Part shown: positions 6,592 to 27,884 of the stretch, in pieces
Numbering within the stretch: the first letter of the stretch is position 1
Layout of the letters: each line of letters begins with the position of its first letter
Origin: Candidatus Methanophagales archaeon
GTDB lineage: Archaea > Halobacteriota > Syntropharchaeia > Alkanophagales > Methanospirareceae
Assembly: GCA_030602585.1 (NCBI GenBank)
Contig: JAUVZJ010000004.1
Coordinates: forward strand, 279-64,278
Direction: 5' to 3'
Length of the DNA: 64,000 bases
The notes under the pieces: generated by a model
Told to the model about the DNA's origin: nothing
What the model saw: the letters and a program-made list of their open reading frames with translations, nothing else
Databases searched by the model: none
Program-made: the position numbers and the translations under genes

Positions 6592-7665
6592 ATGCAGATG
6601 CGAGTACCTGTGCGTTCTTCCTTACGGGAGATAGAAGAATACAAAGCTGGGAAATTAGTAAAAGGGGCGATAAAGCTGAGCTCGAATGAAAACCCGTTAG
6701 GACCAAGTCCCGAAGTGATACGGGAAATAGTCGAGAGCATAGAAGAAGGTAAATTGAACCTGAGTTTGTATCCCTGGGAAAGGAATGAGGAAGAGCTCAG
6801 GGATGAGATTTTAAGTTATGTTGGCGCAGGTATGGGAAACATCGTTATAGGTGCGGGCATAGACGGTGTTTTGGATACGCTTGTCAGGATTTTTATCGAG
6901 AACGGCGATGAAGCGCTGATACCCGTACCCACGTTTTCTCTTTACGAGTCGCTGGTAAAAATAGCCGGGGGCATACCAGAGTACGTAAAAAGGAGAGCTG
7001 ACTTCAGCATAGCAGCAAAAGACCTGCTTCCGACGTGCAGCGAAAAAACGAAAATGGTTTTCATTTCATCGCCAAACAGTCCAACCGGGAATTGCATATC
7101 CGAGGCTGACGTGCGTGCGATAATAGAATCCATGCCAAAGGCAATGGTGGTCATAGACGAGGCGTATGTGGAATTTGCGGATTCGTCGTTGGTGAACCTT
7201 GTGAGGGAATATGAAAACGTGCTTGTATTGAGAACCTTTTCAAAGGCTTTTGGTCTTGCCGGACTGAGGGTAGGATATGCGATAATACCGGAATGGCTCG
7301 CAAGTCATTATAAGAAGACTTCAATACCCTTCTCCGTTAATAGCGTTGCTCTAACCGCGGCGATGGCAGCATTGCGAGATAAAGAGCATTTACGCAGAAG
7401 CGTAGAGTTAGTGAAACGTGAAAGACCGTTTCTCGAGGAGAATTTGCAGCGGTTATTCAAAGTGTATCCCTCGAAGGCTAATTTTCTGCTCGTGGACGTT
7501 TCTCCACGGAAAGCGTATGAGGTGTATGATGCGCTGATGAAGAGCGGGATAATAGTGAGAGATTGTTCTTCGTTTAGAGGTGCTGGAGATTCGTTTATCC
7601 GGATTAGTGTAGGGACAAGAGAGCAGAATGAGAAGGTTGTGGACACTTTGAAAAGTTTTTGCTAA
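6592..7665 (+). CDS. hisC: histidinol-phosphate aminotransferase
   Basis: KLSSNENPLGPSP motif and class-II aminotransferase architecture; 357 aa. Confidence 0.85.
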   Translation: MQMRVPVRSSLREIEEYKAGKLVKGAIKLSSNENPLGPSPEVIREIVESIEEGKLNLSLYPWERNEEELRDEILSYVGAGMGNIVIGAGIDGVLDTLVRIFIENGDEALIPVPTFSLYESLVKIAGGIPEYVKRRADFSIAAKDLLPTCSEKTKMVFISSPNSPTGNCISEADVRAIIESMPKAMVVIDEAYVEFADSSLVNLVREYENVLVLRTFSKAFGLAGLRVGYAIIPEWLASHYKKTSIPFSVNSVALTAAMAALRDKEHLRRSVELVKRERPFLEENLQRLFKVYPSKANFLLVDVSPRKAYEVYDALMKSGIIVRDCSSFRGAGDSFIRISVGTREQNEKVVDTLKSFC

Positions 7666-7801
7666 CCCATACCCATTATCAAAGGAAGCGCAACCACAGT
7701 TCCAAATAAAAAATTTTTGACTTATCTTGTTTTTGTATTATCCTTTAAATACTCATAAATTTACATTTTAGTAAAAAGTAAATGATGGTGGTGATGATGA
7801 G

Positions 7802-8314
7802 ATGAGCGAAGTTATGCGAGAAGTGTTAGATTCATTAGCGAAAATGGGGAAGCAATGGGACTTAGGGGAATCAGTGGGACGTGTCTGGGGCTTCTTACTG
7901 TTCAAGTCCTGTCCCGTAACGCAGAAGGAGATAGAAGAAGGCACGGGCTACAGCAGGGGATTGATTAGCCGAAGTTTGAAGGAATTAAAAAGGGGACCCA
8001 TGATTGAAGTAAAGAGAGAGGGAAGAGAAATCCGTTATTCTGTTAATACCTCTTTAACAGAGAGTTTTAATGAACTGTTGAAGCGTTTTCTCGCTGAGAA
8101 CATCGAACCGATGATTGAATTGCTATCCACGAGTCAGGATAAAATCGACGATGCAAAAGTGAGGGATACTTTTCTCGCACTCTTACACGAATACAAGAAA
8201 TTAAACCTCGCTGTTCTCCTGTTCTCCAGAATAATGAACGATATAAATACGATGCCCGTAGGGGTAGAGAACATTGAAGAAGTGGCAAAGAACATTTCGA
8301 TGAAGATAAGATAA
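7802..8314 (+). CDS. winged-helix transcriptional regulator (GbsR/MarR-like)
   Basis: N-terminal wHTH (VTQKEIEEGTGYSRGLISRSLKEL); lies upstream of the surface-protein/MMPL locus; paralogue at 52806..53246. Confidence 0.5.
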   Translation: MSEVMREVLDSLAKMGKQWDLGESVGRVWGFLLFKSCPVTQKEIEEGTGYSRGLISRSLKELKRGPMIEVKREGREIRYSVNTSLTESFNELLKRFLAENIEPMIELLSTSQDKIDDAKVRDTFLALLHEYKKLNLAVLLFSRIMNDINTMPVGVENIEEVAKNISMKIR

Positions 8315-8337
8315 TGATATAAAGGAGGTGATAAGAA

Positions 8338-9639
8338 ATGAGTAAAAATGGTAAAGGAAGAAAGTTGGTTTCGCTATGCGTTCTCGGCATGGTGCTTTTT
8401 ATGCTGTTTTTGCTTGTGCCGTTTACGTCAGTGGTTCCGGTAGATGCGATTTTCTCTTCTGTTACTATAACGGATGTAACGCCTACGGAGTTGCATCCCG
8501 GAGATACAAGAGAGGTGACGGTGACGGTGAAAAACAATGGCGGCAGGGACGCAAGAGATATTAATTTGGCGTTTCAAGGCACAGAAAACGTATCGCTCAT
8601 AGGACCAACTGTTGTGCACATAAATACGCTAAATTCGTGGTGCTGGAAGGAATTGGAAATCACAGTGCACGTGAAAGAAGAAGCGACTAATGGTGTTTAT
8701 TCTATCCCAGTGACCTGTTCGTGGAGGGAATACTATTTTAACTCTACACTGAGCCGTTATGTGGCTACTGAGATAACAGGACAGCAATTAGGTATTTCTT
8801 TCAACGTAATAGGAAAGGGAGTGATAAATATAGGTGATGTAAGCACTGACCCTACGGACATAAGACCTGGAGATGAGGACGTTGAAATAAGAGTAGATAT
8901 AGAGAATAGTGGCGAAGCAGCGGCGAAGGATGTAGAAGCAAAATTACTTTGCAATGATAAATTCAAACCTTCATGGTCTGGAACGGACCGTTCATACATG
9001 GGCAGGTTGAATTCTGGCGATTCGAAAGAGGCGATATTCCACATTGACATCGCTGAGGGCATAGAAGCAAATACATACGGCATTCCGCTGCGGATAAGAT
9101 ATAAAGATACGAAGGGCGAAGAATACGAGGTAATGCGGGAGATAAACATATTGGTGGAGCCGAAACCGGAATTTGAAGTCGTTTCTTTTCGCACTGAGCC
9201 CGCGGACATAAGCGCTGGCGATTACGTTACATTATATGTGCGAATAAAGAATGTGGGGTCAGAAGAGGCGGAATCTATTAGCGTAAGGTCAACGGGAGAA
9301 GCGGAAGTGCCTTTTGATTTCGATGTGAAAAGCGATTACGTAGGCAATTTGAAACCGGATGCAGAATGGACTGCGGTTCTAAGATTCGATGTGGATACGG
9401 ATGCCTCGCTAAAAACATACCAGCAGGGTTTGGAGATAAGATGTATCGGAGACCGCGAGTTAGGCGATTATAATGTGTATCTTTTCGATATGATGATTCC
9501 GATAAGCGTGTCATCAAGCAGCACAGGAGGTATTTCGGTTCCCGGATTTGAGGCGTTATTCTCACTCCTCGCACTTATTTTCGGTTTTGCCATTATCGGG
9601 CAGCGGAGGACTAAAAAAGCGCACGACAAGAAAGGATAG
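8338..9639 (+). CDS. cell-surface protein with CARDB/NEW3-like beta-sandwich repeats and PGF-CTERM sorting signal
   Basis: N-terminal signal/TM; repeated Ig-like segments (DIRPGDEDVEI...; ADISAGDYVTLYVRIKN); C-terminus SVPGFEALFSLLALIFGFAIIGQRRTKK matches the PGF-CTERM archaeosortase signal. Confidence 0.65.
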   Translation: MSKNGKGRKLVSLCVLGMVLFMLFLLVPFTSVVPVDAIFSSVTITDVTPTELHPGDTREVTVTVKNNGGRDARDINLAFQGTENVSLIGPTVVHINTLNSWCWKELEITVHVKEEATNGVYSIPVTCSWREYYFNSTLSRYVATEITGQQLGISFNVIGKGVINIGDVSTDPTDIRPGDEDVEIRVDIENSGEAAAKDVEAKLLCNDKFKPSWSGTDRSYMGRLNSGDSKEAIFHIDIAEGIEANTYGIPLRIRYKDTKGEEYEVMREINILVEPKPEFEVVSFRTEPADISAGDYVTLYVRIKNVGSEEAESISVRSTGEAEVPFDFDVKSDYVGNLKPDAEWTAVLRFDVDTDASLKTYQQGLEIRCIGDRELGDYNVYLFDMMIPISVSSSSTGGISVPGFEALFSLLALIFGFAIIGQRRTKKAHDKKG

Positions 9640-9645
9640 AACGGA

Positions 9646-10794
9646 ATGGGGCTAAAAGAAAAGATAAGTATAGAAAGGGCATTAGAACGGTTGGCTTCTT
9701 TCCAATACCTGCATTATAAGAAGATAATCGTAGCGGCACTGATTTTAACGGTGTTTTTAGGCTATGGTGCAACCGAACTGCAATTTCAAGGTGATATAGC
9801 GAAGGAGATGCCGCAGGATTTGCCTGTTTTCGTTTTACAAGATAAAATAGCGAGTAAGTTCAAGGGAGCAGAGACAATGATTATAGCCGTTTGTTTGAAC
9901 GAAGAAACGGGTGCGAAAAACATACCACGGGATATAAGAGACCCAAGGGTAATAGCATCAGTGGTTGAATTGCACGAACGGCTTGAAGCGGAATCAGCAA
10001 TTGAAAGTGTTCAGTCGGTGGCTCCCCTTTTTTCGCAAAGTGTCCCCGAAGATATAGAAGGTGTGAAGAGAGTTTTAGATTCTGTTCCTGGTGCAGAGCG
10101 TCTTTTCAACCGTGATTTTAGCATTATGCTGGTCTATACTTCCACTACGGCTGGATTGAGTGAAGAGAAGGTGGAAGAAGTAGCAAATATAATACAAAAG
10201 GACGTTGATTCAATTACAAAGCCCGCAGGTGTGGAATATAAAATAACGGGTATGGCGCCGATGATAATTGAGTTATTAAAGTTGATGCGTGAGGATATGG
10301 TATTCACTACACTTTTGGCGGCGGTTATCATATTCGTGTTTTTGGCAGTGCTGGAGCGCTCGTTCACAAAAGGTTTTCTCGTTTTCCTTCCGCTGATTTT
10401 CGCAATTACATGGACTTTCGGAACAATGGGATTTCTCGAAATACCGGTATCCATTAGCACGGTTATGGTGGGTGCGGTCATTATCGGCTTAGGTGTCGAA
10501 TATGGGATATTCATGGTATCGCGGTATTATGAAGAACGAGAGAGATATGCCCCGGTAGAATCGTTAAAAATTGCGGTCTCTAATATAGGAGCATCAACAT
10601 TTGGCTCCGCAGCAACGACAACTGCAGCATTCTTTGCTTTAACGCTTTCCGTAATGCCAATGATTCAGCACTTAGGGCAGACGCTTGCTTTAGGTATAAT
10701 CTTCTGCTGGCTCGCCGCCGCGGTAGTAAATCCCTGTTTTATCGTGTTTGAGGAGCAATTGCAGGGAAAGCGGAGATTAAAAAATGCGGGATAA
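9646..10794 (+). CDS. MMPL/RND-superfamily exporter, N-terminal half (COG1033-like)
   Basis: One N-terminal TM, a soluble loop, then a five-TM bundle (FVFLAVLERSFTKGFLVFLPL...); typical half of an MMPL transporter. Confidence 0.6.
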   Translation: MGLKEKISIERALERLASFQYLHYKKIIVAALILTVFLGYGATELQFQGDIAKEMPQDLPVFVLQDKIASKFKGAETMIIAVCLNEETGAKNIPRDIRDPRVIASVVELHERLEAESAIESVQSVAPLFSQSVPEDIEGVKRVLDSVPGAERLFNRDFSIMLVYTSTTAGLSEEKVEEVANIIQKDVDSITKPAGVEYKITGMAPMIIELLKLMREDMVFTTLLAAVIIFVFLAVLERSFTKGFLVFLPLIFAITWTFGTMGFLEIPVSISTVMVGAVIIGLGVEYGIFMVSRYYEERERYAPVESLKIAVSNIGASTFGSAATTTAAFFALTLSVMPMIQHLGQTLALGIIFCWLAAAVVNPCFIVFEEQLQGKRRLKNAG

Positions 10795-11950
10795 GCGGAG
10801 GGAATTGGGAAAAGTACCTTTGGAGAAGTATGCGAAGTTCGTATCGCATCACGCTCTCATTGTTTTGGCTATATTTCTTATTTTCACCATTTTCATGGGT
10901 TATCAAGCCTCTTCGATGGAAACAGTGGGGACATCGCAGAAGGCATGGCTTCCAGAGGATATAGAAGTGATAAAGACGTTTAATCTAATAGCAGACCAAT
11001 TTGCGGGTAGCTTTGCTACTTCAACGATTGCAGTGCAAACAGAGCCAAGATATGCAAAATCCGATGAGATACGCGATGTCCGCGACCCGGAGGTGTTAAG
11101 ATACGTTGATTTGCTTTCTGAACGAGCAAAGCTTATTTATGGTGTAGTGAGTGTAAAAAGTGCTGCGGATGTTGTAAAAGAAGCGAATGGCGGTAGAATA
11201 CCGGGTTCTTTGCGTAGCGTGAAGTCACTGTTGGAGCATAACGAACTGGCAGAGCAGGCGATACGCAATTACATCAGCGATGATTATACGATGACTGTGG
11301 TGAGGTTGAACATATTGGAGGATGCGGATGAAGAGGAGGTGGTTGAAGAACTGAGAGAGGTGATAAATATAAAGAAACCGAGTGGTGTATCGGTAGAAAT
11401 TAGCGGCGACCCGATGATACATGTAGCGATGCAAGAGCTCGCAGAGGAAACGATGCAGCGGACCTCTTTCGTCAGCTTCGCTTTAATCATTCTCATTCTC
11501 ATAATCGTATTTGCCTCGATTAAATATGGGCTTATTCCGCTGTTAACGATTGTTTTTGGTATTATATGGGCGATTGGCACGCTTGTTTTGGCTGACTTCG
11601 AAATAACGCCACAGACATCGGGTGTGATGGCGATGATAATGGGCATTGGGATAGATTTTGGCATTCAGGTAACGAAGAGGTTTAGATATGAACTGAGAAC
11701 GCAAAAACGTGAGGATGCAATGGTGAACACGCTCAGCAGCGTGTTCTATCCGATGAGCATAACGACGTTAGCGGCAGTGATTGGATTTAAATGCCTTTCA
11801 CTCGGTAAACTGCCAGTAATGGCAGATATGGGAACGATGATGGCGACAGGTGTGGTGTTTTGTATGGTTGCAGCACTGACAGTGGTGCCGGCGATTCTGG
11901 TGTTGTTCGAGAGGGGGAAAACGTTATATGAAATAAAAAGTAATTCTTAG
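10784..11950 (+). CDS. MMPL/RND-superfamily exporter, C-terminal half
   Basis: Same half-architecture as the upstream gene; 11-nt overlap in a different frame; has its own ATG. Confidence 0.6.
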   Translation: MRDKRRELGKVPLEKYAKFVSHHALIVLAIFLIFTIFMGYQASSMETVGTSQKAWLPEDIEVIKTFNLIADQFAGSFATSTIAVQTEPRYAKSDEIRDVRDPEVLRYVDLLSERAKLIYGVVSVKSAADVVKEANGGRIPGSLRSVKSLLEHNELAEQAIRNYISDDYTMTVVRLNILEDADEEEVVEELREVINIKKPSGVSVEISGDPMIHVAMQELAEETMQRTSFVSFALIILILIIVFASIKYGLIPLLTIVFGIIWAIGTLVLADFEITPQTSGVMAMIMGIGIDFGIQVTKRFRYELRTQKREDAMVNTLSSVFYPMSITTLAAVIGFKCLSLGKLPVMADMGTMMATGVVFCMVAALTVVPAILVLFERGKTLYEIKSNS

Positions 11951-13983: not shown

Positions 13984-14052
13984 TTAGGGATACAAAAAAC
14001 CTACCCTAAAAAGATTCGGTTTTGTTAAAAAAACCTAAAAAGATTCGGTTTT
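13984..14052. promoter_or_regulatory. feoA promoter region with TTAGGG-N14-CCCTAA palindrome and two 19-nt direct repeats (CCTAAAAAGATTCGGTTTT)
   Basis: Inverted repeat at 13984-14009; direct repeats at 14005-14023 and 14034-14052 between the dtxR stop and feoA start; resembles iron-box half sites. Confidence 0.4.
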
Positions 14053-14073
14053 CGCTTAAGAACCGATGCACTT

Positions 14074-14526
14074 TTACTTCTCGCTGCTCTCTTCGCGGGG
14101 ATGCTCTCTCGCCTTACAGAACGTTTCGAAGTGCTCCAGCCATTGTGGATAATCCGGTGCGGACTTCACGAAATGCACAAAATTTTTTAACTGCTCTATT
14201 GTTTCAGGCTCCAATTCGTGCTCGATTATGCATGCATCTTTATTCGCTATTTCCTCTGGCACTTTTATTATTTCCAGGAACGTGCTTATAGTATCATGCC
14301 GCTCTTTTACAACTCGCGCTATATCCCGCCCTTTCGGTGTTAATGTCATGCCATCGTATTTTCGATATTCAATGAGAGTCATGTCGCTCAGCCGCCTTAC
14401 CATCTCCACCACGCTTGAGGGCTTAACGCTTAAAGCAGATGCTATATCCTTCACCCTCGTATATCCCTTCTTTTCCGCAATGTTCAGAATCGCTTCGAGA
14501 TAGTCTTCCGCTTTTCTACTTAGCAT
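14074..14526 (-). CDS. DtxR/MntR family metal-dependent transcriptional repressor
   Basis: N-terminal HTH (YLEAILNIAEKKGYTRVKDIASALSVKPSSVVEMVRRL) and metal-binding/dimerisation region; adjacent to feoAB. Confidence 0.8.
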   Translation of the reverse strand: MLSRKAEDYLEAILNIAEKKGYTRVKDIASALSVKPSSVVEMVRRLSDMTLIEYRKYDGMTLTPKGRDIARVVKERHDTISTFLEIIKVPEEIANKDACIIEHELEPETIEQLKNFVHFVKSAPDYPQWLEHFETFCKAREHPREESSEK

Positions 14527-14538
14527 ACCACAACATTA

Positions 14539-14557
14539 TTAGGGTAGCCTATATTTA
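14539..14557. promoter_or_regulatory. candidate DtxR-type operator (TTAGGGTAGCCTATATTTA) overlapping the dtxR TATA region
   Basis: 14 of 19 matches to the iron-box consensus TTAGGTTAGCCTAACCTAA; 13 nt upstream of the dtxR ATG. Confidence 0.4.
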
Positions 14558-14732
14558 AAGTTTTTGTTTTTTTTTACTTCAAACTTCAATATCCGTACTT
14601 ATTTACCGCGGAGCCCACAGAGAACACAGAGACTCAAAAAATCATTTATCTCATCTCAGCGCTCTCCGTGATCTCGGCGGTACAAATACCAATATCCTTA
14701 TATACAAGAATTAAAAATGTTGAGCCACGTAG

Positions 14733-15809
14733 ATGATGGAAAAAACAATATTTTTCGACCTCGAAGGACCTTTATCACCGCAAGATAATGCCTACGAGGT
14801 GACGAAGCTAATAGGAAAAGAAGGCACTTTTATTTTTGAAGTTATAAGCAGATATGACGATATTATATCGTTTGATGGACGTGAAGGCTACGAGCCCGGG
14901 GATACCCTCGCCTTAATCGTGCCTTTTTTTTTGCTACATGGCATAACCAAAGAGGATATAAAGAAGGTATCAGAGCGTGCAAAGATAGTAGAAGGTGCAG
15001 AATACTTATTCGAGCGGTTACAGGCTGAAAATTGGGACATTTACATCATATCTACAAGTTACGAGCAGCATGCTTACAATGTAGGTCGCAAACTGGGAAT
15101 CCCGGAGAACAAAATTATATGCACGGAGTTAGATTTAGAAAGAAGCGATTTACAAGAAGACATCTTTCCTTTAATAAAAAAGGCTCAAGAAGACATAATC
15201 AAGCTTTATTCGCACATTGACAACACGGAACTCATAGTGAATCGCTTGGACGAGTTCTTCTTCCATCAACTGCCCTCTTTGGGCTATGATATTTTTACGA
15301 CGAGGGTAATAGGCGGCGAAAGAAAAGCAGAAGCAGTACGGGCGATAGCAAAAGAAAAGAGAATAGATTTACGCGAGGTCATCGCTGTTGGCGACAGCAT
15401 TACTGATTATAAGATGCTGAAAGAGGTTGTAACACATGGTGGAATCGCGGTTGTTTTCAATGGTAACGAATATGCGGTTCCTTATGCCAATGTAGGACTT
15501 GCATCCGTTGATATAAGGTTTCTTCACATATTATGCGAGGCTCTTGTGCGAGGCGGGAAAGGAGCAGTGATGGACGTGGTGACGGAATGGGAAGAGAACA
15601 GGGTGGGGTTTGAAAAGAATCCTGCGGATATTTCAGATAACTGTATTACCGGCGATATAAAGGATTTTATGATGGAACAGAAACGAAAAGAGCCTTTTCC
15701 TTATTTTCATAATCTTGAGCACGCAGGCGAAAGAAGAAAAGAAGAGATAATTGAAATACATAAGCGGTTTAGGATGCAGGTGAGAGAAGAAGCGGGTAAA
15801 CTGGGGTAA
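14733..15809 (+). CDS. HAD-superfamily (PSPase-like) hydrolase-like protein
   Basis: Motif I-like FFDLEGPLS and motif IV-like AVGDSITDYKML; 358 aa; the nucleophile motif is atypical (DxE). Confidence 0.4.
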   Translation: MMEKTIFFDLEGPLSPQDNAYEVTKLIGKEGTFIFEVISRYDDIISFDGREGYEPGDTLALIVPFFLLHGITKEDIKKVSERAKIVEGAEYLFERLQAENWDIYIISTSYEQHAYNVGRKLGIPENKIICTELDLERSDLQEDIFPLIKKAQEDIIKLYSHIDNTELIVNRLDEFFFHQLPSLGYDIFTTRVIGGERKAEAVRAIAKEKRIDLREVIAVGDSITDYKMLKEVVTHGGIAVVFNGNEYAVPYANVGLASVDIRFLHILCEALVRGGKGAVMDVVTEWEENRVGFEKNPADISDNCITGDIKDFMMEQKRKEPFPYFHNLEHAGERRKEEIIEIHKRFRMQVREEAGKLG

Positions 15810-15832
15810 GGTAAAATCGCATGATGTTACAC
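15761..15832. repeat. 72-nt direct repeat copy A (3' end of the HAD-like gene)
   Basis: About 92% identical to 16392..16463. Confidence 0.8.
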
Positions 15833-16391
15833 TCTCACGGCTTATTTCATATTCGCTTAATCGCTTTTTCAGGTGAGGGGATGGGTAAAATACGGTAAAG
15901 ATAATTGTTACACATATACTCTGTTAAATCCTTCACGGCTTTAATCTAATAACATGATTTTCTATCCCCATCCTCCTTTACCTTTATACTTTGAAAGACA
16001 GTAAAACAGTAACATTTTTAAAAACATCGAAAAGTTTAAATAGTGATTATAATATTATAATAATTAACAAAAACGACGGGTGGTAGGGCAAATGCCTTTC
16101 AGCGGGTAAGTCCCGCCTACCACTCGGCAACTAAATGAGCTTATTTTTCTTTATTCTCTCAATCTCTTCTGATAAAGTGATATAGTTGTCCGGTATTCTT
16201 CTCATAAAAATTCTTTTAACTTCATATAATCAATTCTAAATCCAAGGTTTTCTGCGGATTTATTTAAATTTGCACCGTCAATGAACATCATGGCTTTTTC
16301 TTCCATATTTTTTACGTAAGACGAGGGATATTTATAAAACTATCGAGATTAAAATTTCAGCGTATCTTGGATACAGGCTATAAAATAAATT

Positions 16392-16463
16392 TAAGCGGTT
16401 TAGGATGCAGGTGAGGGAAGATGCGGGTACGCTGGGGTAAGATAAAATCGCATGATGTTACAC
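16392..16463. repeat. 72-nt direct repeat copy B (orphan duplicate of the gene 3' end)
   Basis: Encodes the same last ~16 codons plus a stop, with 6 substitutions; follows a 560-bp AT-rich non-coding spacer. Confidence 0.8.
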
Positions 16464-16549
16464 CCTGGCTTGCTCAAAAATTAAGTCTCTAAAAGGATAG
16501 CTTTATATAAATTTTTTTATTTTTTATTTAATGTTCACTTCATGTAAAC

Positions 16550-17566
16550 ATGTTAAAGAAAGCAATAATGAATAGAAAGAGCGTGCCTATATTTGGAATC
16601 GCTTTAGTGCTTCTCTTCAGTTGGATAGTATTAGCAACCTCAACCGCCATATCCGCTTCTTCAGATTCCGATGTAGAAATATACGCCTTTGACCAGAACC
16701 CGACGGGAAGCGATGAAGGAAATGAATGGCTCAGGCTTTACAATCCTTCCAGTGAATTCCTGGATATTGGAAAATGGATTTTAGAAAACGGAGATGGAGA
16801 AAAAGAAACAATAGCTGAAGGCACTACCCTTTATCCCTTCGGTTGGTATGACCATCCCTCCCCGCCTTATCAATGGTTAGACAATGAAGATGAATTTATA
16901 ATCTTAAAGGATTCAAAAGGTAAAGAAGTGTATAGGACGCCGGTATTAAGTGATACAAGAGACGATAACAGTTATTGGGTGCTTGAGGATTCAAAATGGG
17001 TTTTTGAGGTGGAAGAAGAATTTGGAAAGCCTACACCAATGCACCTCTACACACCAAAGCCACTAAACACATCAAAGTTTGGTGAATCCGGCATCGTGAC
17101 AGAGGTGGTGGATGGCAATACCATAGAGGTGGAAGGGGTAGGAAGGATAAGATTAGCAGATGTAAACGCACCTGGGATAGATACCGAAAGAGGTAAAGAA
17201 GCGAAAGAATATGTGAATGAGCTTTGTTTCGGAAAGAAGGTTTATCTTGACATTGATGACTTTTACATCCTTGTTGCAGTGGTTTATATTCCTTATAACG
17301 AAACTCATCTGGTAAATCTTAACCAGTTGCTTTTGAAAGAAGAATATGCAGAAGCGATAAATTATCCAAACGAGTTTAATCCTGATATTTGGCTAAGAAC
17401 CCCCTTGGAATATATCGCTTTAATGCCTACGCCTTTACCTTCACCTTTACCTACCTTAACGCCTACACCTACACCAATTCCAACACCTGGCTTTGAGTTT
17501 GAGTCTTTGTTCGCTATAATTGGTATATTGGCTGCAATATCAATATATTTGATTAGGCGAAAGTGA
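16550..17566 (+). CDS. secreted lamin-tail-domain / staphylococcal-nuclease-like (SNase) protein with PGF-CTERM anchor
   Basis: Signal peptide; LTD-like segment (EIYAFDQNPTGSDEGNEWLRLYNPS); thermonuclease-like segment (GIVTEVVDGNTIEVEGVGRIRLADVNAPG...); Pro/Thr linker; terminal PGFEFESLFAIIGILAAISIYLIRRK. Confidence 0.65.
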   Translation: MLKKAIMNRKSVPIFGIALVLLFSWIVLATSTAISASSDSDVEIYAFDQNPTGSDEGNEWLRLYNPSSEFLDIGKWILENGDGEKETIAEGTTLYPFGWYDHPSPPYQWLDNEDEFIILKDSKGKEVYRTPVLSDTRDDNSYWVLEDSKWVFEVEEEFGKPTPMHLYTPKPLNTSKFGESGIVTEVVDGNTIEVEGVGRIRLADVNAPGIDTERGKEAKEYVNELCFGKKVYLDIDDFYILVAVVYIPYNETHLVNLNQLLLKEEYAEAINYPNEFNPDIWLRTPLEYIALMPTPLPSPLPTLTPTPTPIPTPGFEFESLFAIIGILAAISIYLIRRK

Positions 17567-17594
17567 TAGAAATATCAGAAAGCGGAAAGACCTC

Positions 17595-18677
17595 CTATCT
17601 CCTCGAAATCTCCGTTACTTCGCTAATCCCCAACAGGTTCATAATCTCAGAAAGAAGATTATGTTTGAAAGTCGAGTATGCAGCCTCATTCGGCACTGCT
17701 ATCGCCAGCTTCCGGTCTGATAACCCTGGATACGCATCCCCAAACACAATATCTATTTTCCCTATCCATTTCGGTATCTCCTCAAGTATAAAGATTGCTG
17801 AAAAATCAGTTCTCCATTCTCTTACTTCATACCGCGACAAGCTATCAGTAATCACTATGTAAAGTGAATCTCTTTCTAAAATCACATTGCCCGTAACAAA
17901 CATGAAGGCATCATCTATTTCGAACCCGCTGAAATATCCTACCGTATCCGCTACTTTTTCACTTTCTGGTATGCTGAGAGTATCAGCAAGTCCTTCTTCT
18001 CGCCCTTCAAACTTCATTTTCCTCTTCGCATTCTCTACAAGTTCTACTATCGCCTTTTCAAGCGTTTCCATCACCGGCATCTCCATGAGTTTATTCGTTT
18101 TCCACGCTCTCAACCTTTCCTTCGCATCATTTATTTCAGCCTCACTCTGGTATAACCTCAAGAATTCATTTCCACGTCTGTTACCATACACGCACAACTT
18201 CTCATTGATAAATTTCTCTTCCAATGACTGAAAGACCTCCGGTGAAAATATTTCTGACATCTCATTTTTTATAATCTCATATTGCGAGAACCTGCCAAGT
18301 CCACGGTTACCTATTTTCAAGAGTAATTCAATCATTTTTAGCGCCGCTTTATCCCCTTCTTTCGCTGCGGTCTCAATGCATTCCGACAAATTCCCTGGCT
18401 GAGGTGAACATCCACCTGCAATATCATTGAAAACCTCTTCATAACCCGAAAGGCAAAGATATTCGTTATAAGCACCTATTTTTATAACCCCTCTCTTTCT
18501 AAGCTGATTTAACAAACCCTTGCAGTCCTTTTCGCCTGTTATCGCATTGAAGTTTTTCACAAGCGTTTCCTCTGTTGTATAACCTTTCAATAGATGAAAC
18601 AGCCCCAGTAGTGTCTTCATATCCTCATCTGTCTCTGCCAAACTTAAAATTGTGTTTCTATATTCTTCAGGAAACAT
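17595..18677 (-). CDS. hypothetical protein
   Basis: 360-aa ORF with normal codon usage and no recognisable motifs. Confidence 0.4.
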   Translation of the reverse strand: MFPEEYRNTILSLAETDEDMKTLLGLFHLLKGYTTEETLVKNFNAITGEKDCKGLLNQLRKRGVIKIGAYNEYLCLSGYEEVFNDIAGGCSPQPGNLSECIETAAKEGDKAALKMIELLLKIGNRGLGRFSQYEIIKNEMSEIFSPEVFQSLEEKFINEKLCVYGNRRGNEFLRLYQSEAEINDAKERLRAWKTNKLMEMPVMETLEKAIVELVENAKRKMKFEGREEGLADTLSIPESEKVADTVGYFSGFEIDDAFMFVTGNVILERDSLYIVITDSLSRYEVREWRTDFSAIFILEEIPKWIGKIDIVFGDAYPGLSDRKLAIAVPNEAAYSTFKHNLLSEIMNLLGISEVTEISRR

Positions 18678-20710: not shown

Positions 20711-21671
20711 AGAAAAAGAAAATGAAACGAGGAAAACGTTGGAAAGGCAGGGATACCACTTCGTAGGAGCGAAGAAGCACAGTGCGGTGAAAACCTGTTT
20801 ATGGTTAAGGAAATCTCTTAGAGGAGAGGGAAATTGCTATAAGGGCAAATTTTACGGCATCCGCGCGCATCGGTGCATCCAGATGACGCCTTCTATTTTC
20901 TGTAATCAGCGATGTGTCCATTGCTGGCGCCCTCTTGAGGCATTTAACATGGGAACAGAAGAGAAGCATGTCGTTTGGGATTCGCCTGACGAGATAGTGG
21001 AAGAGAGTATAAAAGAGCAAAAGAGGCTTATTTCCGGGTTTAAAGGCTCTGACAAAACCAGCATGGATGCATTTGCAGAGGCTGAAGTTCCAAAACACGC
21101 CGCTATTTCGCTCATAGGCGAGCCTACACTGTATCCGTATTTAAAGGAGCTTGTTCAGGAATTCCATTCGCATGGCATGACCACTTTTGTGGTGACGAAC
21201 GGCACGAATCCTGATGTGCTGCGAGAAATACGCCCTTCTCAGTTGTATTTATCATTGAATGCACCGGACGAAGCCATTTACAAAAAAGTTTCACACGCCA
21301 ATCACTGGTCTCGTATAAAAGAATCGCTGGAAGTGCTGAAAAGGCAGAAAGGGAGAACGAGAACAGTCGTAAGAATCACCTGTGTAGAAGGACTGAATAT
21401 GGTGAATCCAGAAGGCTATGCCGAATTGTTAGAAATAGCAAATCCCGATTTTGTCGAGGTGAAGGCATATATGCACATCGGGTATTCGAGAAAACGGTTG
21501 AGTAGAGATGCTATGCCCACGCATTCACGAGTAAAAGAATTTGCAAGCGAAATTGCGGATTTTTTAGCATCTGCATCTAACTATGACTATAAGATAGTAG
21601 ATGAATCGGAGATAAGCCGGGTGGTTCTTATTTCATCAACAAGCTTGGAGATGTCGAGGCGAAAGATTTAA
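20679..21671 (+). CDS. taw1: tRNA wybutosine-pathway radical SAM enzyme Taw1 (4-demethylwyosine synthase)
   Basis: HSAVKTCLW...CNQRCVHC (Cx3Cx2C) and TYW1-like length; overlaps the preceding gene by ~30 nt, so the start is uncertain. Confidence 0.7.
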   Translation: MEPRATLNYSEEKENETRKTLERQGYHFVGAKKHSAVKTCLWLRKSLRGEGNCYKGKFYGIRAHRCIQMTPSIFCNQRCVHCWRPLEAFNMGTEEKHVVWDSPDEIVEESIKEQKRLISGFKGSDKTSMDAFAEAEVPKHAAISLIGEPTLYPYLKELVQEFHSHGMTTFVVTNGTNPDVLREIRPSQLYLSLNAPDEAIYKKVSHANHWSRIKESLEVLKRQKGRTRTVVRITCVEGLNMVNPEGYAELLEIANPDFVEVKAYMHIGYSRKRLSRDAMPTHSRVKEFASEIADFLASASNYDYKIVDESEISRVVLISSTSLEMSRRKI

Positions 21672-21732
21672 GGTTTATAACCGCTGTGCTTTGCCGCCTC
21701 CAAATTAAAAAAGATTGCCCAATCCAACAGCT

Positions 21733-23388
21733 CTATTTGATTGTCCTTAATTCCACCTCACACTCCGAGCAGAACCGCTCATCCGCTTGCACTTCCTTAC
21801 CACAGTTTGGGCATTTCCTCGCCGAAGTAATTTCTGACCGCTGAACAGCACTGTCCTCAATATTAACACTTGTTGCACTTTCACCATGTCCACCAAAACT
21901 CGTTCTCTGCACAACCGAATCAATAATATTAATCACCTGCTTGCTCTCGATAATTCCAATCTCCTTTGCCGATTGAACCGACCCCACAAGATGTCGTATG
22001 CTGTTTCCAATCTCGTTTAAGAACCCGTGCAGACCGTAAGGCTTATCCGAATATGCGCGGAGTGCGACTTGAGTAAAGTTATTATAAGGCTGAATGACCG
22101 CAGTGAGCAGATAATACGCCTTTTCTCCTATTGATTCACCTGCAAGGTTAACTATTTTTGCGGAGTCAATTTCATGTTCGCTGATAACATAAAGCCGATG
22201 CGCACATGCTTCTTTGACAAATTCTGTAATTTCATTGACGCTGATTCCACTGAACGATAAACCTTCCTGAATATGTTCGCATGTATTTGCGAGTTCTGCG
22301 AATTCGCCTTCTCGCATCGCTTTTTCCTTGAGGAATGGGCAAACGCAATGCACCTCTTTCGGTCGCATCTGCACCGCTTGCTTTTCTCCTGTGTGGTCTT
22401 TGTAGGTTATGGTTGCATCTATTTTTTCGTTGTGGATGCAGCCAAGCGGTGTAAGTATGTATTCCGCAGTTCGCTCTCCATGAGGGTCAATGTTGGCGAG
22501 ACTTTGAACCACATTGTCGTTAAAGGAGAAGAGTGTTTTTGGATAGGCGAGTATGGTTTCTACATCCATTATCGCAGAGTCGGTGTTGTTGATGATGCGG
22601 ATACCGAATCGGAGGTCGTTGTTTTGTAATACTTCGTAGCCTCGTTTTATCTCTACCTTTGCCAGCGTAACTTCTTCCGTAGGGATGGATGTGGAAGGAC
22701 CTGTTCTGGCGGTGACCGTTCCAATTTCTATGGACTTGTTATAGGTTTCGTCTTCCAAGTCCTCGAATGACAATTTAAAAGTTCCAATGTTTATCTGCCC
22801 TGCAACAGATGGATTGAGTTTAAACGGCACCTCTCTATCAGAACCGGGATCAATTTTTTCTATTTTAACTTCGTTTTTACTGATGCAATCAATTTCAACT
22901 GGATGTAGCACAGAAATTACAATATTTTTTGCTACAACCATTCCTGTATTCCGTAATTTCAGCGAGACCACATTATCCTCGCCCACCTGTAAGAATGCAG
23001 GCACTGATGGCTCTGCTATCAGCTCAGGTTCTGGTGGATACACAACAAACTCCTCACGTAGTGATTTTGAGTAATTAGCGCAGGTTACTTCAACAGATAC
23101 ACTTTGTTTTCCTGCTTTGAGTGCTTTGATTGGAATATCAAGTTCTGTGGATGACTGCTTTGGAATTGTGTTTATCGTTGGCTCCGTGAGTATTTCGATG
23201 CCGTCTGATGCCGTTACAGCGATTGAAATTGGGTCTGCGTTTGCGTAGCCGTAGCCTGTGTTTTTTACATGTAGCGTTAATTCGCCAGATTCGAGTGCAT
23301 TCAGGGTCGGGATGGTCATGAAAAGCGTGAGGTTTGGAGCTCCTTTGCGATGGCTGGTTATTACTTTATGGGCTATGCCTATGAACAT
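21733..23388 (-). CDS. surface/secreted multi-domain protein with beta-sandwich repeats and C-terminal zinc ribbon
   Basis: 551 aa; repeated Ig-like segments; C-terminal CPNCGKEVQADERFCSECEVEL zinc ribbon; the upstream in-frame extension encodes a TM helix but has no canonical start. Confidence 0.5.
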   Translation of the reverse strand: MFIGIAHKVITSHRKGAPNLTLFMTIPTLNALESGELTLHVKNTGYGYANADPISIAVTASDGIEILTEPTINTIPKQSSTELDIPIKALKAGKQSVSVEVTCANYSKSLREEFVVYPPEPELIAEPSVPAFLQVGEDNVVSLKLRNTGMVVAKNIVISVLHPVEIDCISKNEVKIEKIDPGSDREVPFKLNPSVAGQINIGTFKLSFEDLEDETYNKSIEIGTVTARTGPSTSIPTEEVTLAKVEIKRGYEVLQNNDLRFGIRIINNTDSAIMDVETILAYPKTLFSFNDNVVQSLANIDPHGERTAEYILTPLGCIHNEKIDATITYKDHTGEKQAVQMRPKEVHCVCPFLKEKAMREGEFAELANTCEHIQEGLSFSGISVNEITEFVKEACAHRLYVISEHEIDSAKIVNLAGESIGEKAYYLLTAVIQPYNNFTQVALRAYSDKPYGLHGFLNEIGNSIRHLVGSVQSAKEIGIIESKQVINIIDSVVQRTSFGGHGESATSVNIEDSAVQRSEITSARKCPNCGKEVQADERFCSECEVELRTIK

Positions 23389-23453
23389 TAGGAGTCCTAG
23401 GAGTATGCCAGCTCCGTAGAGTATTAGTTGCTTTGTTTTTGCCTTTTCGGCAC

Positions 23454-24527
23454 TTATTCTTGCGTTTTCAGCACTTGTTTTTGCCTGGTTTGCGAATTGA
23501 CCGCCTCTTGATACTGTTTGTTTTCAAGTGCTGTTTTTGCCTGGTTCAAGAGATTTTGAGCCTCTGCTGTATCTGCTCCGATTTTGTTTGCAGAGGCGAT
23601 TTCGGATTGTGCTTTCGAAATTGCATTCGTGATTGTAGATAGTAGTTCAATCTTTGATTTAGTAGCGAACGCATACACACAATAATCCGGCGAGCAAACA
23701 TACACCACACCGTCTGCCACCGCAGGTGACCTGACAGGTGACCTGACAGTGCCACCCGTTTTGTATTTCCATTTCTCTGCACCACTATCGGCATCTAACG
23801 CATACATATAATCATAACCCGAGCCAACAACTACACCGCCTGCTACCACTGGTGACGAACTGACCCAATCATCCTTTTTGTATTTCCACTTCTCTTTACC
23901 ACTATCGGCATCTAACGCATACACATAATCACCCGAGCCAACATACACCACACCGTCTGCTACCGCTGGTGACGAACTGAACCAGCCACCCGTTTTGTAT
24001 TTCCATTTCTCTGCACCACTATCGGCATCTAACGCATACACATAACTATCAGCCGAGCCAACATACACCACTCCGTCTGCTACCGCTGGTGACGAATGAA
24101 CAGAATCACCCGTTTCGTATTTCCATTTCTCTTCCCCACTATCGGCATCTAACGCATACACATAATCATCATACGAGCCGACATACACCACTCCGTCTGC
24201 TACCGCAGGTGACGAACTGACACCATCACCAGGTTTGAATTTCCACAATAGTTCCAGCGGCGGTTCAGCTTCACCATCTGCTTGTCCGGTATGTGCGGGG
24301 TCGTGGCGGAACATGGGCCAGTCGGTTGATGTGAGTGTTTTAATTGATGTGGGGGTTGGTGCTGTTAATACAAGGGTTGTTTCGACCTCTTTCTGATACT
24401 GCCCGCCATCCAGTTCCGCAGATGCTGGCATTGTCACTAACGACAGCAATCCAACAACAACCAGTACTACAATAACTATCCCTATTTTTCCTTGTTCGTT
24501 CTTAATTTTTATTTCCATTTTCCTCAT
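23454..24527 (-). CDS. PQQ-repeat beta-propeller protein with N-terminal membrane anchor
   Basis: Six or more repeats of AVADGVVYVGSxDxYVYALDADSGxEKWKYKTG; N-terminal TM; C-terminal coiled coil. Confidence 0.7.
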   Translation of the reverse strand: MRKMEIKIKNEQGKIGIVIVVLVVVGLLSLVTMPASAELDGGQYQKEVETTLVLTAPTPTSIKTLTSTDWPMFRHDPAHTGQADGEAEPPLELLWKFKPGDGVSSSPAVADGVVYVGSYDDYVYALDADSGEEKWKYETGDSVHSSPAVADGVVYVGSADSYVYALDADSGAEKWKYKTGGWFSSSPAVADGVVYVGSGDYVYALDADSGKEKWKYKKDDWVSSSPVVAGGVVVGSGYDYMYALDADSGAEKWKYKTGGTVRSPVRSPAVADGVVYVCSPDYCVYAFATKSKIELLSTITNAISKAQSEIASANKIGADTAEAQNLLNQAKTALENKQYQEAVNSQTRQKQVLKTQE

Positions 24528-24831
24528 GTGAAAATCTATTTCCCTATTTTTAAAGGGACAAACTGATGATAAAAAGTTTAGTATTGTTTCAATTATTATT
24601 ACAAATATAAGCTAAAAAATTTAAAATATTCGAAATTTAATTTCGGAATTGTGATAACTTTATATAGCAGATAGTTCATACCTTAAGTAAAAGATGTGCA
24701 GGCTAATGGATGAGGCGTAAAAAGAATGAATAGGGAAATTTTTGGAGATAAGTGTTTCATACAGAGAGATGTATACAAACCAAGTTTGGATATACAACGT
24801 TATATGAAATTGCCAGTTGGTGGAATGAGAA

Positions 24832-25875: not shown

Positions 25876-26025
25876 TGATGGTGACTTTATATAACAAAAT
25901 ATATCTGGCTTTGCGCCTTCGGCACTCCGCCAAAATTTGCTCCGCTATCACTTCACAAACTTCAGATACGCTAGGAACGTTTAGCGAGATTGGGTTAAAC
26001 TTACCAGTAAGAAAGGAGGTTTTAG

Positions 26026-26460
26026 ATGGCAGTAATTAGTGCAACTCTAGATTGGGACGGTGTATGGGTGATAAAGGAGGATGAGATACCTTCTAATATC
26101 CCCGATGAAGAAGGGATTTATATGGTCCACAGTGGAAAACGCTCTGACGAACCCAACAAATGGGTCCCATCATCCTATGAATTGCTGTACATTGGAGAAG
26201 CTGAAGAAGTCCGCTCTAGAATTGCCGGGCACGAAAAGTGGTCATGTTGGAAGCGGAATTGTAAAAACCACATACTTTTGAAAGTGGCCAGATGTAGATT
26301 CGGAACTACAAAAAGGCAAAAGGTTGAGTGTTGCTTGATATACAAGACTAAGCCAACCTGCAATGATGAATGCAAAGACGATTTCCCTCATAAGAATGAC
26401 ACAATCCAGATAACAAATACAGGTATGATATCGCCTTTGAAAGATAACTATACTTGCTAA
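26026..26460 (+). CDS. island ORF 2: GIY-YIG-like nuclease domain protein with Cys-rich tail
   Basis: GIYMV (aa 30-34), LLYIGEA (53-59), VRSRIAGHE (Arg/His/Glu); C-terminal Cys cluster; RBS AGGAGG upstream. Confidence 0.45.
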   Translation: MAVISATLDWDGVWVIKEDEIPSNIPDEEGIYMVHSGKRSDEPNKWVPSSYELLYIGEAEEVRSRIAGHEKWSCWKRNCKNHILLKVARCRFGTTKRQKVECCLIYKTKPTCNDECKDDFPHKNDTIQITNTGMISPLKDNYTC

Positions 26461-26534
26461 GTTGGGGCTAGCAACTTAGCCTAACAGCGTGTATCTAGCT
26501 CAGCTACGCTTCGCCAACATTTAGGATAGATGCT

Positions 26535-27188: not shown

Positions 27189-27231
27189 TGTTGACCCATC
27201 CTAGTTTTTAGACAAAATAATACGCGGCACA

Positions 27232-27591: not shown

Positions 27592-27690
27592 CAAAGACAA
27601 ATAGGCCGGCGCTATCTCTCTTAACATGTGAAAAATAGCCTAAACATATAACTTAATATAGATAAAAAAGAATAAAATAAGCAACTAAAA

Positions 27691-27882: not shown

Positions 27883-27884
27883 CG

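Follow-up and report, generated by a model that had tools for sequence, protein, structure and literature searches.

A nuclease pseudogene and a candidate structured RNA gene lie between duplicated 3′ ends of a hydrolase gene in an ANME-1 archaeon

How does the 3′ end of a protein-coding gene come to be repeated, stop codon included, a few hundred nucleotides downstream of the gene itself? This question is raised by a locus in a 64,000-nt stretch of a Candidatus Methanophagales contig (hereafter the window), in which the end of a HAD hydrolase gene recurs beyond an AT-rich gap. The original prediction was that an integrative element had targeted the gene end, duplicated it as an attachment site and then been lost. 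The uncultured ANME-1 archaea play a key role in the anaerobic oxidation of methane; apart from viruses, their mobile DNA is poorly known. The features of the locus are listed in Table 1.

Table 1. Features at the HAD 3′ end and its right flank (positions in the window)
Feature	Position	Strand	Basis and remarks
EhaR-like HAD-IB hydrolase gene, 358 aa	14733..15809	+	ORF and translation; Pfam HAD/Hydrolase; NCBIfam TIGR01488
Repeat copy 1	15761..15835	+	Functional HAD 3′ end (16 codons and stop, 26 nt of 3′ flank); aligned to orthologous 3′ ends
ANME-1 intergenic repeat motif GAAAAAGCGAT..AAGCGAATATGAAATAAGCCGTGAGAG	15830..15881	-	nhmmer profile, E=3e-10; abuts inner edge of copy 1
Predicted archaeal sRNA promoter, BRE-like CGAAAAG and TATA box TTTAAATA	16028..16042	+	Conserved sequence and spacing; function inferred
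Candidate structured sRNA gene, ~80 nt	16064..16150	+	MFE, covariance model, covariation, strand asymmetry
NYN (LabA-like, PF01936) nuclease pseudogene	16131..16306	-	Translation; tblastn with the intact 170-aa L001 gene; alignment
Repeat copy 2	16392..16466	+	Orphan HAD 3′ end; frame and stop kept, without start
Secreted LTD and SNase-like protein gene with PGF-CTERM-like anchor; right-hand neighbour	16550..17566	+	Pfam LTD, SNase, PGF-CTERM

A repeat search delimited two direct repeats of 75 nt, identical at 69 positions (92%), with a start-to-start spacing of 631 nt. The duplication had been described as 72 nt, about 16 codons plus stop recurring 630 nt downstream with 6 substitutions; it is real, with 6 substitutions as described, and the repeat search made it only 3 nt longer. 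Both copies contain the final 16 codons of the HAD gene with its stop codon, plus 26 nt of 3′ flank; the gene product scores 54 bits against TIGR01488 (cut-off 45). Copy 1 is the true 3′ end of this ORF and includes its last 49 nt. The left boundary of the repeat is sharp and falls within HAD codon 343, and on the right, similarity extends past the repeats through GGCTT (15839-15843 / 16467-16471) when a 3-nt indel is allowed. The longest identical runs inside the repeats are 24 and 21 nt. Many ANME-1 orthologues share the ~15 nt immediately 3′ of the stop codon (AAAATCGC.TG), which identifies the duplicated sequence as native to HAD. The pair is not a chance similarity, since the BLAST E-value for copy 2 is 2.4e-26 and the whole 64 kb contain only five direct-repeat families of at least 40 nt. 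Nor is it an assembly artefact, because the same structure recurs in independent assemblies (the window, Logan contig L036, NCBI MAG L001 and ENA contig L110). A third, degenerate copy in the left arm (~15889-15945) was considered and rejected: its Smith-Waterman score was 29, compared with a shuffle mean of 24.7 ± 3.3, and 64 of 500 shuffles scored as high.

The gap between the HAD gene and its right-hand neighbour measures 740 nt, as described, and is AT-rich (GC 0.29-0.37 versus 0.38-0.46 in the flanks). It was also said to be non-coding and to lack ORFs; it does lack long ORFs, but it holds a nuclease pseudogene and an RNA gene. The pseudogene retains the N-terminal 34 and C-terminal 24 codons of an NYN gene; alignment with L001 shows that a 337-nt deletion at 16204/16205 has fused them out of frame. 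In that MAG the same repeats surround an intact NYN gene (170 aa), whose product matches PF01936 over its full length (E=8e-25, 88.5 bits; cut-off 24.2), and the window remnant scores only 14.2 bits, as expected of a pseudogene. Residues D10, D92, D117 and D119 are invariant across the subfamily. In PADLOC, NYN appears only among generic candidate components of defence. The NYN gene on the minus strand and the RNA gene on the plus strand are convergent, the segment that they occupy (hereafter the cassette) is ~0.97 kb when intact and 0.63 kb in the window, and copy 2 sits between the divergent promoters of NYN and the LTD gene.

We found the RNA gene, which is previously undescribed, to specify a Y-shaped core (16077-16126) composed of a 10-bp basal stem and two hairpins, with a predicted fold of -28.6 kcal/mol (z -3.2). 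A covariance model, R1, scores 112.9 bits at the window sRNA and has a match next to every NYN homologue with 51% identity or more, one of them in Bathyarchaeia. In the alignment, 96.9% of cells are paired and 10 of 18 base pairs covary, a result reached by none of 500 shuffles; covariation occurs in all helices, around a three-way junction with conserved unpaired bases. The predicted TATA box TTTAAATA lies 21 nt upstream of a conserved TTAACAAAAACGACG, and the predicted BRE/TATA sequence and its spacing are conserved in the window, L037, L038, L039, L043 and L046, which suggests that the candidate sRNA is transcribed. The T-rich 3′ end of the sRNA gene is antisense to the last NYN codons, and the predicted transcript ends would place the two RNAs in a cis 3′ overlap. 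A search of Rfam 15 covariance models over the sRNA gave no match at the gathering threshold or at E<=10. We consider it likely that the sRNA family is real and absent from Rfam. Two readings of the RNA were rejected: a tRNA-like molecule (ARAGORN found no tRNA, and no tRNA or Rfam model matched) and trans-pairing with the NYN start region, for which RNAduplex gave z values from -1.3 to +1.6 at inconsistent sites in eight lineages.

Alternatively, the conserved hairpin might be only a bidirectional terminator or a 3′-UTR structure of the NYN mRNA, and the repeat a reused regulatory or terminator element. The structure does start directly after the NYN stop codon in every homologue, and a conserved T5 run (CGTCGTTTTTGTT) follows it on the NYN-sense strand. 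However, the substitutions favour the plus strand, with 14 G.U cells on the anti-NYN strand versus 3 on the NYN-sense strand (A.C cells), and it is the anti-NYN strand that conserves the BRE/TATA elements at a fixed spacing. Archaeal termination in general needs only oligo-T, and covariation in every helix together with conserved unpaired junction bases goes far beyond its needs. The RNA is also kept intact where NYN is degraded, in both the window and L109. Regarding the repeat, a copy present in all relatives around unrelated spacers, which the original prediction named as a sign of regulatory duplication, was not observed; because the repeat is absent outside two lineages, it is no general regulatory element. 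These observations leave the terminator reading very unlikely.

We compared the cassette with that of L001 to see how its interior and flanks had diverged. The interior (15812-16400) differs from L001 at only 4 of 589 positions (99.3% identity), whereas the flanks differ by ~5.3%. Over 14.4 kb, the median is 30 differences per 589-nt window, and no such window outside the cassette shows 8 or fewer. The tract of near-identity begins 2 nt past the HAD stop codon, and the coding part of copy 1, which differs at 5 of 51 positions, does not share it. As judged from these alignments, the interior has a history separate from that of its flanks, and the comparison indicates that the small cassette has been exchanged horizontally between ANME-1 lineages.

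The repeats themselves behave differently from the interior, in that orthologous copies are as diverged as the background (5/75 for one, 6/75 and an indel for the other), and divergence between paralogous copies is similar to that between orthologous ones. Repeat position 10 is T in both window copies and A in both L001 copies and the outgroups, which points to gene conversion between the copies. The variant mosaic of the four copies fits no simple single-crossover scheme. Copy 2 of L001 is the closest to outgroup L117 (2/49 versus 5/49), a weak hint in the direction expected from an e14-type substitution; an attempt to sort a native from a foreign copy by means of outgroups was abandoned because the numbers are too small and gene conversion blurs them. 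The intergenic motif at the inner edge of copy 1 was likewise rejected as a cassette-specific recombination site. According to nhmmer, it occurs three times in L037, once in L038, and also in L025 and L015; since it lies far from any NYN in the latter two, it is a general ANME-1 intergenic repeat.

Orthologues of the HAD gene were found in 35 genomes with MntR-HAD synteny kept. The outgroup L117 and more than 20 other ANME-1 HAD loci have a single HAD end and no cassette, and the cassette with a second repeat copy is present only in the window/L036 and L001/L110. The ancestral downstream neighbours are a TPR-like gene followed by FBP aldolase/phosphatase, and copy 2 is followed by the LTD gene instead. 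Three contexts succeed the HAD stop codon within about 10% nucleotide divergence, namely TPR/FBPase in at least 11 lineages, DUF1616 in L117 and the cassette here, which marks the stop codon as a recurrent breakpoint. In none of the relatives compared, all with a single HAD end and other downstream genes, is HAD directly followed by LTD. Because copy 2 leads into LTD rather than TPR-like/FBPase, a true empty site sharing this right flank is missing among these loci, and a simple insertion that left the rest of the site unaltered cannot be demonstrated. An LTD-like gene is the divergent neighbour of NYN in L037 and L038 as well (tblastn); there NYN adjoins it directly, without copy 2, a hint that the adjacency of NYN and LTD predates the duplication.

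The NYN-sRNA core (~15987-16338) recurs in unrelated contexts in other archaea: its range covers ANME-1/Halobacteriota, Bathyarchaeia and unassigned metagenome contigs. In Bathyarchaeia (L039-42) it lies beside an IS4 transposase and R-M genes, in L102 beside an integrase SAM-domain (N-terminal) fragment (32.9 bits) and in L109 beside a DDE fragment. The unit conserved across all contexts is NYN and the RNA alone, and no duplicated gene ends were found around the other modules. Another repeat pair of the window (21749-22006 / 28543-28794) was rejected as an occupied/empty parallel, as L001 has a different gene there and the second copy is an isolated fragment.

If an integrative element created the repeats, traces of its recombinase, attachment site or relatives might persist. 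No recombinase domain was found in the cassette, within about 9 kb to its left or right, or in the ORFs from 6.6 to 29.6 kb, of which a few have no Pfam match, and the 150-nt and 53-nt arms of the cassette contain no integrase remnant. No attP-like copy of the HAD end was detected beside other modules (80 loci, 503 kb). The intact cassette had no BLAST match among phages and plasmids, and HAD-end patterns gave none on viral contigs. A viral origin was rejected, as a scan of viral contigs for the NYN protein was also empty and neither the RNA, the HAD end nor the cassette matched; six degenerate-pattern matches to the RNA core in the viral search all failed the covariance model. Transposition leaves target-site duplications of 2-15 bp, well short of the 75-nt repeat, and neither a transposase nor inverted-repeat arms at the cassette ends (15836.. 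/ ..16391) were seen. With respect to integrons, which combine an IntI integrase with arrays of promoter-less cassettes, each closed by an imperfect-palindrome attC, L037 carries three ~60-nt copies of the intergenic motif after successive small genes, and the motif is also single in L025 and L015; however, no IntI was seen and the NYN-sRNA module has its own predicted promoters. The integrative origin proposed for the duplication is thus only partly borne out: the repeats do bracket DNA with its own history, absent from L117 and the more than 20 other loci, but neither a recombinase, an attP, an occupied site with a provirus or plasmid and its integrase in relatives, nor a match to the cassette, RNA or HAD end in viral and plasmid databases was found.

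How, then, did the repeats arise? We give about an even chance to the reading that they mark the two junctions, left and right, where recombination inserted a small accessory cassette at the HAD 3′ end. Incoming DNA, probably circular, would have carried the module and a stretch of ~75-85 nt homologous to the HAD 3′ end. A single (Campbell-type) crossover between this stretch and the HAD end in the chromosome, catalysed either by an integrase or by homologous-recombination enzymes of the host, would leave one copy completing HAD and an orphan copy on the far side. The repeats may later have recombined together by gene conversion, letting the interior pass between ANME-1 lineages. In the window, the 337-nt deletion has destroyed the nuclease gene and left the RNA gene untouched. 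The predicted loss of the element does not hold, as the cargo is still present, intact in L001 and with NYN internally deleted in the window.

A duplication made in place, without integration, is a serious rival because the right flank is not the ancestral neighbour, although we rate it as clearly the less probable. Module and LTD would already have been neighbours, as their adjacency without copy 2 in L037 and L038 suggests, and a rearrangement at the HAD stop-codon hotspot, a lineage-specific synteny breakpoint, would have brought HAD alongside. A template switch during replication or repair (MMBIR/FoSTeS-like) would then have copied the 75-86-nt HAD end a second time, 556 nt downstream; alternatively, tandem duplication and deletion could have produced the second copy. 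The L001-like interior would stem from a later, ordinary homologous-recombination exchange. The 5-nt GGCTT microhomology at the right junction, the similar divergence of paralogous and orthologous repeats, and the fact that recombinase and attP were not found in the searches made all speak for such a duplication in place. This scheme requires at least three events, namely the rearrangement, a double template switch and an exchange tract ending inside both repeats, its left junction lacks microhomology, and it gives no reason why a module that is horizontally mobile elsewhere should lie between the duplicated segments. Less probable again, and on balance improbable, is that a full-size provirus or plasmid encoding an integrase entered the HAD 3′ end at an attB and later lost almost everything, leaving the att duplication, with NYN-sRNA as its last remnant. 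Direct repeats across a gene 3′ end are typical of such elements (PMC13626634), the two longest identical runs could act as a core, and the module elsewhere lies beside an integrase fragment (L102) and IS/R-M genes. Against this, both lineages have the same compact cassette with no further element genes, only NYN and the RNA are conserved across contexts, no viral, phage or plasmid relatives of NYN, the RNA or the HAD end were found, and the arms are free of integrase remnants.

The locus is a case of a sub-kilobase cassette passing between lineages where a gene 3′ end forms a recombination hotspot. Such a signature is usually taken for a prophage scar; as it occurs here without a recombinase, the locus informs the spread of small accessory modules in archaea. 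The cargo combines a structured RNA with strong covariation and one LabA-like NYN nuclease subfamily, to which it is strictly linked. We tentatively suggest, as a possibility still more doubtful than probable, that NYN and the convergent RNA are functionally coupled as an undescribed, horizontally mobile RNA-protein system of two components, whose role might lie in defence, in dedicated RNA processing or in a toxin-antitoxin-like function. If so, the RNA would be a new structured-RNA family that, like an antitoxin, persists once the nuclease is lost, and the cassette, lacking its own recombinase, would insert beside gene ends or into them.

Among known systems, a close parallel in architecture is prophage e14 at icd/icdC in E. 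coli, where direct imperfect repeats of a gene 3′ end are able to recombine (PMC13626634). As with e14 (and phage 21) in icd, one copy here keeps the ORF whole and the other is a promoter-less C-terminal fragment across the insert. However, e14 is a 15-kb element with its own integrase and excisionase, whereas the insert here is <1 kb and has no recombinase. The copy that completes the gene in e14 comes from the element and shares its history; the coding part of copy 1 here does not have the history of the interior, and the gene on the right is not the ancestral one. Archaeal elements of the SSV/pTN3 type insert in Campbell fashion, as proposed here, and produce direct att repeats, tens of nucleotides long, at the 3′ end of a gene. 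They differ in three traits that were not found here: tRNA genes as targets, a tyrosine recombinase, which in the SSV type is split upon integration, and perfect att cores. Direct repeats around an insert absent in relatives, as expected of attL and attR, are thus present, and an integrase and attP were not found.

The cargo resembles toxin-antitoxin modules with RNA antitoxins in being a compact mobile pair of a nuclease-fold protein and a small structured RNA, in that the RNA outlives the protein gene (window, L109), and in its neighbourhood rich in defence and mobile-element genes (L039). Type I toxins are small membrane peptides, and type I systems include convergent antisense RNAs overlapping the toxin 3′ end (txpA/RatA-like); the protein here is a 170-aa NYN rather than a membrane peptide, and no conserved pairing with the NYN 5′ region was seen. 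In type III (ToxIN) systems the antitoxin RNA consists of tandem repeats located upstream of the endoribonuclease toxin and co-directional with it; the RNA here is single-copy and convergent, and a repeat scan of 14000-18000 found no tandem array. The protein itself, by the full-length PF01936 match of the L001 product and the invariant acidic residues, resembles the LabA-like NYN / COG1432 group (PF01936; PDB 2qip). This group is very large and is annotated as 'function unknown', its biochemical function not being established (PMC5499597). The present subfamily differs in its associated RNA, none being described for the group, and such a dedicated RNA partner offers a testable handle on what LabA-like NYN nucleases bind or cleave.

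The window is DNA of an ANME-1 (Methanophagales) archaeon. A repeat search recovered one direct-repeat pair of 75 nt, spaced by 631 and identical at 69 of 75 positions (BLAST E=2.4e-26). The affected gene encodes a 358-aa HAD-IB/'EhaR'-like protein, whose nearest relatives (66-89% identity) are found in ANME-1/Methanophagales MAGs and whose remoter ones (43-57%) belong to Methanocellales and to a small number of other archaea; copy 1 comprises its final 16 codons and stop together with 26 nt of 3' flank. Because the ~15 leading flank bases (AAAATCGC.TG) are also present 3' of the stop in many ANME-1 HAD orthologues, the repeated unit is native HAD sequence. The left repeat edge is abrupt, and at the right edge a 3-nt indel is followed by similarity on through GGCTT. 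A Logan assembly (L036) contains a contig identical to that of the window. The original prediction of a duplicated gene end beside a 740-nt gap of low GC content was confirmed; its description of the spacer as non-coding and ORF-less was not, since an NYN pseudogene and a putative small-RNA gene lie inside.

The minus strand of the spacer translates to MEEKAMMFIDGANLNKSAENLGFRIDYMKLKEFL*, which resembles the N-terminus of NYN (LabA-like) nucleases and has a Pfam NYN score of only 14.2 bits. A second MAG (L001, JAFNKG010000004.1; HAD 89% identical) carries both repeats and a common spacer 337 bases longer than that of the window, and the minus strand of this spacer encodes an intact 170-aa protein with an end-to-end PF01936 match (E=8e-25), in which the acidic residues D10, D92, D117 and D119 are invariant within its subfamily. 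Because L001 encodes this longer, intact version, the window copy is, on comparison, a pseudogene with a 337-nt deletion and a shifted frame.

A Y-shaped hairpin (MFE -28.6 kcal/mol, z -3.2) adjoins the NYN stop codon on its 3' side, and such an element also follows the stop in NYN homologues from very different contexts. A covariance model built on five examples had matches adjoining all NYN homologues of at least 51% identity (L037, L038, L039-45 (Bathyarchaeia), L043, L046/L102, L106, L107, L108 and, twice, L109), and no match beside ~50 homologues of 41% identity or less or elsewhere in the window. In the alignment, 96.9% of cells were paired and 10/18 pairs showed double changes, figures favoured by fitting the alignment to the model's own structure; 0/500 shuffles reached these values, and slid-partner controls were only 37-53% paired. 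The raw sequence of L046, which was outside the model-building set, has compensatory changes in 3/3 helices. G.U cells numbered 14 on the strand opposite NYN, compared with three would-be G.U on the NYN-sense strand. In all lineages, the former strand carries a BRE/TATA sequence, CGAAAAG TTTAAATA, at a constant ~21-23 nt from a conserved 5' segment (TTAACAAAAAYGACG). T-runs come next, within the final NYN codons. We conclude that the spacer holds a putative ~80-nt small-RNA gene, convergent with NYN and predicted to be transcribed. No match was found in Rfam 15, even at E<=10, and a literature search yielded no account of this RNA. This undescribed NYN-associated structured RNA is what the analysis adds to the original prediction.

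Over 14.4 kb of alignable sequence, the window and L001 differed at a rate of 5.3%, with a median of 30 differences per 589-nt segment. The interval from just past HAD into copy 2 showed four differences plus the deletion, and no 589-nt segment free of overlap with it had eight or fewer. This near-identity starts 2 nt past the HAD stop and stops 9 nt inside copy 2; the repeats themselves diverged between the genomes at background level or above (copy 1, 5/75; copy 2, 6/75 and a 2-nt indel). At repeat position 10, T is found in both window copies and A in both L001 copies and the outgroups, a signature of gene conversion between copies. A further contig, L110, represents the same population as L001, and the independent lineages with the cassette thus number two. 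These comparisons show that the cassette has a history of its own, apart from its flanks. The C-terminal ~70 codons of HAD formed the stretch most divergent from L001 (86-90% nt), with a 6-nt indel, and directly adjoin the most conserved one, the cassette.

Elsewhere in the window, a second long direct-repeat pair (~255 nt, 81-88% identical, 6.8 kb apart) has as its first copy the 3' terminus of a CARDB/zinc-ribbon gene on the minus strand and as its second copy an isolated fragment. It sits within an ~8-kb segment that is missing from L001 and holds genes for a PQQ beta-propeller protein and a PIN-domain protein, along with several hypothetical genes; the site in L001 is taken by a small membrane-protein gene of Sm_multidrug_ex type. 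The propeller gene contains five tandem 117-120-nt repeats, which probably encode propeller blades. Another segment missing from L001 (4.3 kb) holds genes for a MarR-like HTH protein and a CARDB surface protein, along with two MMPL-family transporter halves. Rfam also detected a 118-nt tRNA gene missed by ARAGORN, which presumably contains an intron; intron-containing tRNA genes are typical of archaea.

The MntR-HAD gene order is kept throughout ANME-1. In at least 11 lineages, HAD is followed first by a TPR-like gene of ~140 aa and next by FBP aldolase/phosphatase, and the genes 3' of HAD in these lineages had no match to any window ORF. This order, seen downstream of HAD in L002-L026, is the ancestral one for ANME-1. 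L117, a close relative and an outgroup to the window and L001 (HAD 91% aa; FeoB-MntR-HAD 91-94% nt), has one HAD end. Its similarity to the window ceases exactly at the stop codon, and a third downstream context begins there, with convergent DUF1616 genes of which one overlaps the end of HAD. The stop codon of HAD is thus a recurrent breakpoint, a hotspot of gene-order change. The cassette and copy 2 were limited to the window and L001.

Across all contexts, the conserved DNA core of the module is confined to NYN and the RNA, each with its promoter. In L039-42 the module adjoins an IS4-type transposase and MmeI/Eco57I-type R-M genes. In L102, L046 and L103-L105 it directly adjoins a 126-aa ORF, next to the ftsZ-secE-nusG-rpl11 cluster, that consists solely of an N-terminal SAM-like domain of phage-integrase type (PF02899, 32.9 bits). 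In L109, two modules in inverted arrangement lie beside a DDE transposase fragment; the first has an intact RNA gene and an NYN reduced to a C-terminal remnant, the decay pattern of the window. The right-hand neighbour in the window encodes a secreted LTD + staphylococcal-nuclease-like protein bearing a PGF-/Heimdall-CTERM-like anchor, and genes of this kind lie next to NYN, divergent from it, in the window, L037 and L038, three lineages of ANME-1 type (in L038 the gene appears frame-shifted). Intergenic regions of ANME-1 genomes contain a recurrent purine-rich motif of ~60 nt (CCGAAAAAGCGATGAAGG..GAAGGGATATGAAATAAGCTTTGAGAA). L037 has it after each of three consecutive small genes, a cassette-array-like layout.

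Coordinates of features in the window and in compared contigs
Feature	Sequence	Position	Strand
HAD gene	window	14733-15809	
HAD C-terminal stretch	window	15600-15811	
6-nt indel	window	~15682	
Copy 1	window	15761-15835	
Copy 2	window	16392-16466	
Near-identity interval	window	15812-16400	
Module core	window	about 15987-16338	
BRE/TATA	window	16028-16042	opposite NYN
Putative RNA gene	window	about 16064-16150	plus
Y-shaped hairpin	window	16077-16126	
NYN pseudogene	window	16130-16306 (stretch translated)	minus
337-nt deletion	window	16204/16205	
LTD gene	window	16550-17566	
LTD-like gene	L037	1-417	
LTD-like gene	L038	1856-2392	
Purine-rich motif	window	15830-15881	minus
Purine-rich motif	L037	1177-1249, 1842-1912, 2702-2770	
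Purine-rich motif	L038	3107-3171	
Purine-rich motif	L025	4560-4625	
Purine-rich motif	L015	7530-7594	
Third downstream context	L117	4988-6284	
SAM-like-domain ORF	L102	3722-4102	minus
Inverted modules	L109	1116-1206, 1201-1449, 1503-2237, 2218-2305	+, -, +, -
Second repeat pair	window	21749-22006, 28543-28794	
~8-kb segment missing from L001	window	21668-29658	
4.3-kb segment missing from L001	window	7665-11936	
PQQ/beta-propeller gene	window	23454-24527	
Tandem repeats	window	23694-24287	
tRNA gene	window	57099-57216	

NYN proteins have a PIN-like, metal-dependent nuclease fold; no activity has been established for the COG1432/LabA group (PMC5499597). We suggest that NYN and the RNA may form an RNA-protein pair, the RNA restraining the nuclease or serving as its substrate, because the RNA co-occurs strictly with this NYN subfamily, the two genes are convergent and overlapping, the module neighbourhoods are of MGE/defence type, and the RNA outlasts nuclease decay. 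An antisense RNA blocking the NYN start site was not supported. The module falls outside the definitions of both type I and type III toxin-antitoxin systems.

With regard to the duplication, we favour, with moderate confidence, entry of the cassette by single-crossover (Campbell-type) insertion at the HAD 3' end, because such insertion would yield an A-B-A layout with a module absent from relatives. The crossover would have been made by an integrase or by host homologous recombination across ~75-85 nt; later, the repeats would have converted each other, and the interior would have been exchanged by way of them. However, this reading is weakened by the failure to find a recombinase in the cassette or from 6.6 to 29.6 kb of the window, an attP-like copy either next to other modules or among viral contigs, or any phage, plasmid or viral relative, and none of the other modules is flanked by a duplicated gene end. 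The original prediction of an att-like scar was partly supported: the repeats bracket DNA with a history apart from that of the flanks, and the cargo is still in place. Its strict version, in which a large element has since been lost, seems improbable, and a purely terminator or regulatory explanation appears more improbable still.

Insertion is also weakened by the gene order: copy 2 is followed by LTD, not by the ancestral neighbour, and in L037 and L038 NYN directly adjoins an LTD-like gene with copy 2 absent. Both observations support an alternative in which the module and LTD were neighbours beforehand, a rearrangement at the hotspot joined them to HAD, and a template switch re-copied the HAD end; the right junction, with its GGCTT microhomology, is also consistent with it. 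We regard this route as rather unlikely, and as the most plausible of the rivals to Campbell-type insertion. Prophage e14, inserted in icd and leaving icdC as an orphan, is the classic case of such insertion (PMC13626634). As in e14/icd/icdC, the layout here is A-B-A, where A is a gene 3' end and B a transferable module that relatives lack, and the architecture is a variant of this known arrangement, the duplication of a gene 3' end at an insertion junction.
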